A DNA stretch of 31,467 bases, from the NCBI GenBank assembly GCA_964491445.1, contig CAZBFY010000001.1, positions 1 to 31,467 on the forward strand, written 5' to 3'. Each line of letters starts with the position of its first letter. Position 1 is the stretch's first letter. Shown here piece after piece: positions 15,097-15,405 of the stretch. The position numbers and the translations under genes were made by a program. The notes under the pieces were generated by a model that made no database searches, was not told the origin of the DNA, and worked only from the letters and a program-made list of their open reading frames with translations. This DNA comes from an uncultured Mycoplasma sp. Its GTDB lineage: Bacteria > Bacillota_I > Bacilli_A > RF39 > UBA660.

Positions 15097-15256
15097 GCTT
15101 AGTAATAAAGAACTAAAAATGATTACTGGAGGTCTTAAATTCTCTGGTACTATATTAAATGCCTTTACTTCAGCTTTTAAAGTTCTATATGGTTTTGGAC
15201 AAGAATTTGGTTCTTCAATTCGTCGTATTAGAAGAAAAAAACTATGCAGTTTTTAG
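15062..15256 (+). CDS. Double-glycine leader peptide B
   Basis: ...LSNKELKMITGG|LKFSGTILNAFTSAFKVLYGFGQEFGSSIRRIRRKKLCSF*; GGAG 6 nt before ATG 15062 (exact start uncertain). Confidence 0.85.
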   Translation: MDMLDQLNVANRLSNKELKMITGGLKFSGTILNAFTSAFKVLYGFGQEFGSSIRRIRRKKLCSF

Positions 15257-15405
15257 ATAAAATAAAACAAATAAATAAACAAAATTTAATAAAAGTATCT
15301 TTATTTATTATATTAATACCAATTATTATGAAAATACTATATTTTATTAATATACTAGGTATAGCTTTTGGTTCATATTTAAGAGAAATTTCAAATTGTA
15401 TATAA
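15244..15405 (+). CDS. Leaderless 53-aa membrane peptide C, paralogous to the core of peptide B, absent from ORF track
   Basis: MQFLDKIKQINKQNLIKVSLFIILIPIIMKILYFINILGIAFGSYLREISNCI*; overlaps B stop; shares G-x-x-FGS-x-[IL]-R-x-I and terminal Cys with B; lies before the operon terminator. Confidence 0.7.
   Translation: MQFLDKIKQINKQNLIKVSLFIILIPIIMKILYFINILGIAFGSYLREISNCI

Follow-up and report, generated by a model that had tools for sequence, protein, structure and literature searches.

A small predicted membrane protein related to one peptide of a class IIb-like pair in an uncultured family of gut Bacilli

The last gene of a bacteriocin-like operon in an uncultured family of gut Bacilli encodes a 53-residue protein, here called C. 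It is a genuine conserved gene under purifying selection, and comparison of sequence profiles indicates that it is a paralogue of peptide B, one of the two exported peptides encoded just before it, and is related to B only and not to the other, peptide A. The operon lies in a stretch of 31,467 nucleotides, hereafter the window. The role that we favor for C, to which we would give a little less than an even chance, is that of a tethered mimic of B that provides self-protection, as a variant of the small immunity proteins with one helix known from class IIb systems, such as CbnZ and BrcI. Immunity by decoy had been suggested in a preliminary description of this DNA, and as a whole the suggestion is plausible in light of the sequences compared below.

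The operon and its exported peptides

The operon consists of a C39-ABC exporter, A, B, and C. The exporter (12918..14972, + strand) is an ABC transporter with an N-terminal C39 peptidase domain (Pfam Peptidase_C39, 1.3e-27; ABC_membrane, 9.6e-23; ABC_tran, 9.2e-28) in which the Cys of the DCG motif is present. Its start was set at the ATG that matches the 683-residue product of a close relative, L083, and its score against TIGR01193 is under the cut-off. Peptide A (14959..15096, + strand) has a GG leader and a hydrophobic, GxxxG-rich mature part ending in YVRPIKCRK. Peptide B (15062..15256, + strand) has a GG leader, an amphipathic helix, and then the sequence GxxxG[ST]xIRR[IV]-x5-C. The operon contains no regulatory genes and no receptor-like or signaling genes. 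It is closed after C by an intrinsic-terminator-like hairpin with a T-run (15404..15455, + strand), which a terminator pattern scan overlooked and folding detected; its stem is poor in G-C pairs, and its minimum free energy is -17.4 kcal/mol, with a z of -5.9 relative to shuffles. A sporulation/housekeeping block, yqfC-yqfD-vanZ-ybeY-dgkA-cdd-era, lies 3' of the operon.

On the 5' side, dnaE (8330-11224) is separated from the exporter by a RelB/YafQ toxin-antitoxin pair (11410-12004); the interval 11225-12917 also holds short minus-strand ORFs, one of which has a weak, sub-threshold guanylate-kinase/P-loop match. The gap between dnaE and the exporter is only about 140 nt in L083, and thus the 1.5-kb stretch found there in the window looks like an insertion. 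In another close relative, represented by a contig from the Hadza gut (L086:1-1092), A, B, and C are present, and the gene directly upstream is on the minus strand and is not the exporter.

Several traits place the locus close to class IIb bacteriocin operons. As in the lactococcin G, plantaricin EF/JK, and TIGR03949 systems, there is a C39-ABC exporter followed by two adjacent genes for GG-leader peptides, GxxxG is present in both mature peptides, and one peptide has a cationic tail. In class IIb peptides the GxxxG motifs are thought to mediate helix-helix pairing (PMC2850506). Peptide A also belongs to a curated family, with a score of 29.8 bits against TIGR03949 (class IIb bacteriocin, lactobin A/cerein 7B family; cut-off 21.5), a model that is matched by 25 of the 34 members of the A family. 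Weak holin-like matches were found for A as well. Unlike the peptides of the known operons, B falls outside the described families and matches no curated family in Pfam or NCBIfam. When PDB sequences were searched with the profile of B, only chance matches came up, and a protein atlas look-up returned only unnamed clusters with scores under 0.9. The lack of regulatory genes is another difference, as is the presence in both A and B of one invariant Cys.

The invariant residues are G32, G36, P40, and C43 in A and G44, G48, R53, and C60 in B. The leaders of A and B align at an E value of 1.9e-9 and are the sole part common to the two peptides. The single invariant Cys of each mature peptide, A C43 and B C60, is near the C-terminus, and no modifying enzyme is encoded nearby; an intermolecular A-B disulfide, or other thiol chemistry, is possible from these positions.

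In most relatives an accessory protein of 130-160 residues with one transmembrane domain, here called X, is encoded between the exporter and A; the clade of the window is without it. X (L023:941-1363 and its equivalents) weakly matches NCBIfam NF045999 (MAG1140 family), and NF045998 (Mbov_0121 family) ranks second among the NCBIfam matches of the exporter, with a score below its cut-off. The two families are from Mycoplasma, which hints that Mollicutes have a related export system. Open-access full text yielded no mention of MAG1140 or Mbov_0121, and searching by exact word makes this weak evidence of absence.

One apparent association between A and C was dropped. In a biased first sample (30, 9, 5, and 1 loci in the four classes) an Arg-Pro motif of A seemed to track C strongly, with too few independent contrasts. 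Among 80 loci the association faded, the motif being kept/lost in 19/7 loci with C and in 28/24 without.

ORF C and its relationship to peptide B

ORF C (15244..15405, + strand) is present exactly as the preliminary description had placed it and encodes a leaderless small protein with a predicted membrane helix. It overlaps B by 13 nt on the same strand, and its ATG takes its first base from the end of a Leu codon of B and the other two from the start of the adjoining Cys codon. The chance of an open frame of this length is about 0.003 at the 24% GC of the window. When 1.84 billion representative proteins were searched exhaustively with a profile, the C family came to 234 clusters (50% identity), nearly all of 47-63 residues. 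Many of these proteins had already been called by independent gene callers, as hypothetical proteins of "Bacilli bacterium" MAGs. Six close relatives of the window's C, with 60-79% identity, have the same dnaE-ABC-A-B-C-yabP-yqfD synteny.

The occurrence of C was scored in 80 scorable loci, one per genus, which were fetched by their matches to B and represent the strongest of these. In 27 of the 80 genera a clear C with an intact frame lies directly downstream of B. A further 7 have a divergent small hydrophobic ORF at the same overlapping position with a GxxxG motif, mostly followed by R, K, or N. Thus C is found directly 3' of B in 34-43% of these genera, the range being that without and with the divergent forms. 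A few copies of C contain in-frame stops.

Conservation of the ORF and dN/dS in relatives had been named in the preliminary description as a check, and both speak for a selected gene. In addition to the 234 clusters, C has a pN/pS (Nei-Gojobori) of 0.39, as against 0.40 for A and 0.36 for B. The value drops from 0.64 in the N-terminal part of C to 0.21 in the part that runs from Pro26 to the C-terminus, indicating that the constrained part of C is its B-like half. No curated family in Pfam or NCBIfam corresponds to C, and no immunity family matches it. Pfam DUF7442, a phage membrane protein, was considered and rejected, given a score of 20.2 bits (cut-off 23.8), matches to 2 of 34 C members, and a likeness that is one of hydrophobic composition.

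The likeness between B and C is visible by eye in the window, where GQEFGSSIRRI in B corresponds to GIAFGSYLREI in C and a Cys is found near both C-termini. Taken alone, this pair gives a marginal result: its Smith-Waterman score of 30 was matched by 152 of 5000 shuffles (p about 0.03). BLASTP gave no alignment of the window's B with its C, a pair that is too short and too hydrophobic. Family alignments were built for each peptide from 12 and then from 34-50 sequences, and profile-profile comparison (hhalign) of C with B gave a probability of 91% and an E value of 9e-7 to 1.2e-6 over 24-28 columns. The C-B score of 32.4 compares with a mean of 8.1 (sd 1.9, maximum 15; z about 13) for 300 column-shuffled B alignments, none of which reached half of the C-B score, and with 11 for the reversed B alignment. 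The same comparison of C with A shows no likeness (E 0.2). In keeping with the earlier proposal that C is a paralogue of B specifically, C is thus related to only one of the two peptides. When whole genomes were searched in six frames, the 3' half of the C profile matched the B genes themselves in at least 25 genomes, and weak C-like matches were found immediately 3' of B in many B-bearing genera.

The module common to B and C can be written as [IL]xx[IL][FL]x[LIV]-G-x-x-[LFV]-G-[ST]-x-[ILM]-R-x-[ILV]. It corresponds to residues 31-53 of C (15334..15402, + strand), which align with residues 36-61 of B in hhalign and include the invariant G39, G43, and R47 as well as Cys52. GxxxGxxxR is present in all 51 distinct C sequences, and the part of B retained in C is the most conserved part of B, with GxxxG and the invariant Arg. 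Of the likeness as first described, then, the GxxxG[ST]x[ILM]Rx[ILV] segment is borne out at the level of the family, and the second shared motif, K[VI]LY, is not: in the family alignment its copies in B and C are offset by three residues, and it is restricted to the clade of the window, so the match is probably a coincidence. The shared terminal Cys, likewise, holds for the window and for the 38 of 51 C sequences with a Cys among their last six residues, and fails for the other 13. A Cys seven residues past the Arg is found in 20 of 51 C sequences, versus 81 of 82 B peptides. In cognate pairs the modules of B and C resemble each other no more closely than in non-cognate pairs (p 0.72), and concerted evolution or co-variation was not seen.

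The rest of C is unlike B. As had been noted, a basic stretch and a predicted hydrophobic helix take the place of the GG leader, and the tail is neutral; charge and hydrophobicity agree with this description. Across the C family, a Lys-rich stretch whose net charge averages +3.2 precedes the longest uncharged segment. This segment is a hydrophobic core of about 20 residues on average, usually with a Pro; an acidic residue often comes after the core, and then the B-like module, the mean net charge after the core being +0.9. In the window's C, the basic N-terminal tail, which is probably cytoplasmic given its charge and the positive-inside rule, comprises residues 1-17 (15244..15294, + strand), and residues 18-30 (15295..15333, + strand), with the nearly invariant Pro26 of the family alignment, form the start of the hydrophobic anchor. 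AlphaFold2, run with 34 sequences, models the protein as a single helix of residues 12-52 (mean pLDDT 84.6). A basic N-terminus together with the positive-inside rule would put the N-terminus of C in the cytoplasm and the module at the outer end of the helix, which in this topology is where the exported A and B would act. The predicted complex of mature A with C had a score of 0.03, a value that counts neither for nor against binding.

The Shine-Dalgarno duplex of C is weak, with a mean of -4.0 kcal/mol, versus -8.2 for A and -8.8 for B. This suggests that translation of C depends on ribosomes that finish B, and expression of C is probably sub-stoichiometric. The sequencing runs that contain this stretch are of DNA only, from gut and fecal metagenomes with no RNA run listed, and are silent on expression.

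Distribution and history of the locus

Of 200 genera sampled from the window's family, which is made up of uncultured gut Bacilli, 194 have a homologue of B. In a class-wide sample all 49 genomes of the family have B, as does the one genome of a neighboring family, and the 28 other families of the class gave no match save one weak, leader-only one. The site of the locus is syntenic, just upstream of rpsU in most genera and of yqfC in the clade of the window. Together, the near-universal presence of B and the syntenic site indicate that the exporter/A/B locus is a vertically inherited core locus. Such inheritance, near-universal and syntenic across a whole family of small-genome gut Bacilli, is unlike that of class IIb operons; bacteriocins are not usually inherited in this way, and the pattern points to a physiological role for the locus.

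Some features of the neighborhood vary. In most genera rpsU follows B or C and is itself often followed by a second short gene (15406-15491 of the window compared with L028-L040 and L090). In the clade of the window yqfC comes directly next, and rpsU must have moved elsewhere in those genomes. One genome (G154; L091:2984-6998) has a cassette of about 3.9 kb right after C, consisting of three multi-pass membrane proteins and an ABC ATPase, with a nearly identical repeat of the final 33 codons of C at its boundary. The second C-like match in G154 was considered as an orphan copy and rejected, being this duplicated 3' end of C flanking the 3.9-kb insertion.

C has a patchier distribution than A and B. 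Among the 80 sampled genera, 46-53 keep A and B with no C found, and about 23 of these are also without X. C-bearing loci occur in all major clades of a tree built from the C-terminal part of the exporter, and the outgroup family and the deepest branches of this tree are without C. The fewest changes needed to place C on the exporter tree number 6-7, and the pattern fits one early gain of C followed by several losses.

Candidate roles for C

The immunity genes of two-peptide (class IIb) bacteriocins share an operon with the peptide genes and adjoin them (PMC2850506). C occupies this slot, as the preliminary description had pointed out. Several small immunity proteins with one transmembrane domain are known, including CbnZ (42 residues), BrcI (53), EnkIaz (52), and AbpIM (55) (PMC6957408), and the mode of action of two-peptide bacteriocin immunity proteins is still described as unknown (PMC8538875). 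Like these four, C has 40-60 residues and a single predicted membrane helix, and its gene comes right after two GG-leader peptide genes in the same operon, a layout shared by its relatives. Unlike them, in a comparison made by description only, C has a 24-28 residue copy of the conserved tail of B; for proteins of the CbnZ/BrcI type the literature consulted reports no likeness to their own bacteriocin (PMC6957408). The position in the immunity slot, the existence of small one-TMD immunity proteins, the pairing of helices by GxxxG, and the retained B module together lead to the reading of C as a factor for self-protection.

In this mechanism C would have arisen, most likely, by a partial tandem duplication of B, keeping the GxxxG/Arg part and acquiring a membrane anchor in place of the leader and the amphipathic N-terminal half. 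It would be made from the A/B transcript, mainly through translational coupling to B, and would insert into the producer membrane with its basic N-terminus inside and the B-like module at the outer helix end. There C could serve as a dominant-negative stand-in for B, by taking either the GxxxG face of A that re-enters or the docking site of B on its target. As a result, no active A-B assembly would form in the producer's own membrane. Capture of A through the Cys, which had been put forward as a means by which a decoy might act, is ruled out as a general mechanism by the quarter of C proteins that have no Cys.

Competition of this kind has a conceptual counterpart in phage. Holin/antiholin pairs, such as S105/S107 of lambda and S68/S71 of P21, consist of a membrane protein and an antiholin that is an alternative-start product of the holin's own gene and is nearly identical to the holin. 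As in these pairs, C would inhibit a membrane protein as a near-relative that pairs without completing the active assembly. Unlike an antiholin, C is the product of a separate gene, has only the C-terminal module in common with B, and carries its own anchor. A more specific form of the self-protection reading would make C a tethered, antiholin-like dominant-negative copy of the pairing module of a pore-forming subunit, an arrangement not known to have been described for bacteriocins, within a domesticated, vertically inherited core A/B system rather than a strain-variable weapon. In this full form we hold it only tentatively, as the less likely outcome. In open-access full text, no account was found of an immunity protein that is homologous to its own class II bacteriocin or acts as a mimic or decoy of it; the searching was by exact word, and absence is weak evidence.

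The survey of genera limits what C can be. Since more than half of the genera with A and B are missing C, C cannot be the obligatory immunity factor of the system. The near-universal, syntenic occurrence of A and B leaves in doubt whether A/B is toxic at all. Finally, the weak ribosome-binding site of C argues against a stoichiometric titration of A.

These points bear on the chief rival explanation, in which C joins A and B as a structural partner: it would reside in the membrane and use the GxxxG module to receive or retain exported A and B on the surface of the producer, as part of a physiological system inherited vertically by the family. This explanation is favored by the family-wide presence of B (194 of 200 genera; 49 of 49 genomes), by its near absence from the other families of the class, and by the conserved location of the locus among housekeeping genes, upstream of rpsU or yqfC, a pattern more in line with a core function than with a toxin that varies between strains. 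C also contains the module of B and, given the shared operon, is presumably co-expressed with it. However, the many genera that keep A and B without C mean that the pair works without this partner, A exceeds the cut-off of a curated class IIb family, and the operon has no receptor-like or signaling genes. Overall, we judge a structural role to be unlikely, if still worth serious attention.

C might instead be active itself, either as a leaderless third toxin component akin to B or as a holin-like or type I toxin-like membrane toxin. It is leaderless, has about 50 residues, and is homologous to an exported peptide, and the weak holin-like matches of A would fit as well. There is a resemblance to the leaderless multi-peptide bacteriocins garvicin KS and aureocin A70, which are also short, mutually related peptides encoded side by side. 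Those peptides are exported and amphipathic, unlike C with its long hydrophobic anchor, and C accompanies two peptides that do have leaders. A Lys-rich N-terminus followed by an uncharged core averaging about 20 residues suggests that C is inserted into the producer membrane rather than exported, and C is always tied to B through the overlapping start. An activity of its own is thus improbable.

A role for C as an aid to the exporter, as a substitute for or adjunct to X, is suggested by the window's clade, which has C and no X. However, X is present too in most C-bearing loci, some loci have neither, and homology to the mature tail of B has no obvious role in export, making this explanation slightly less probable again. 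Least probable by far is that C is a functionless, decaying by-product of a partial duplication of B, as its repeated loss in many genera and the few copies with in-frame stops might suggest, given a pN/pS of 0.21 in the module, the invariance of G39, G43, and R47 across 51 distinct sequences, frames that have stayed open in DNA of 24% GC, and the constant length of the 234 clusters; the selection data already contradict it.

If the reading of C as a tethered mimic of B is correct, it would provide a simple mechanism for immunity, competition at a GxxxG interface, and immunity genes might then be found by their likeness to the peptides that they oppose. For the family itself, uncultured gut Bacilli whose genomes are of about 1 Mb, the retention of a class IIb-like pair in almost all genera suggests that the pair has a role beyond occasional warfare.
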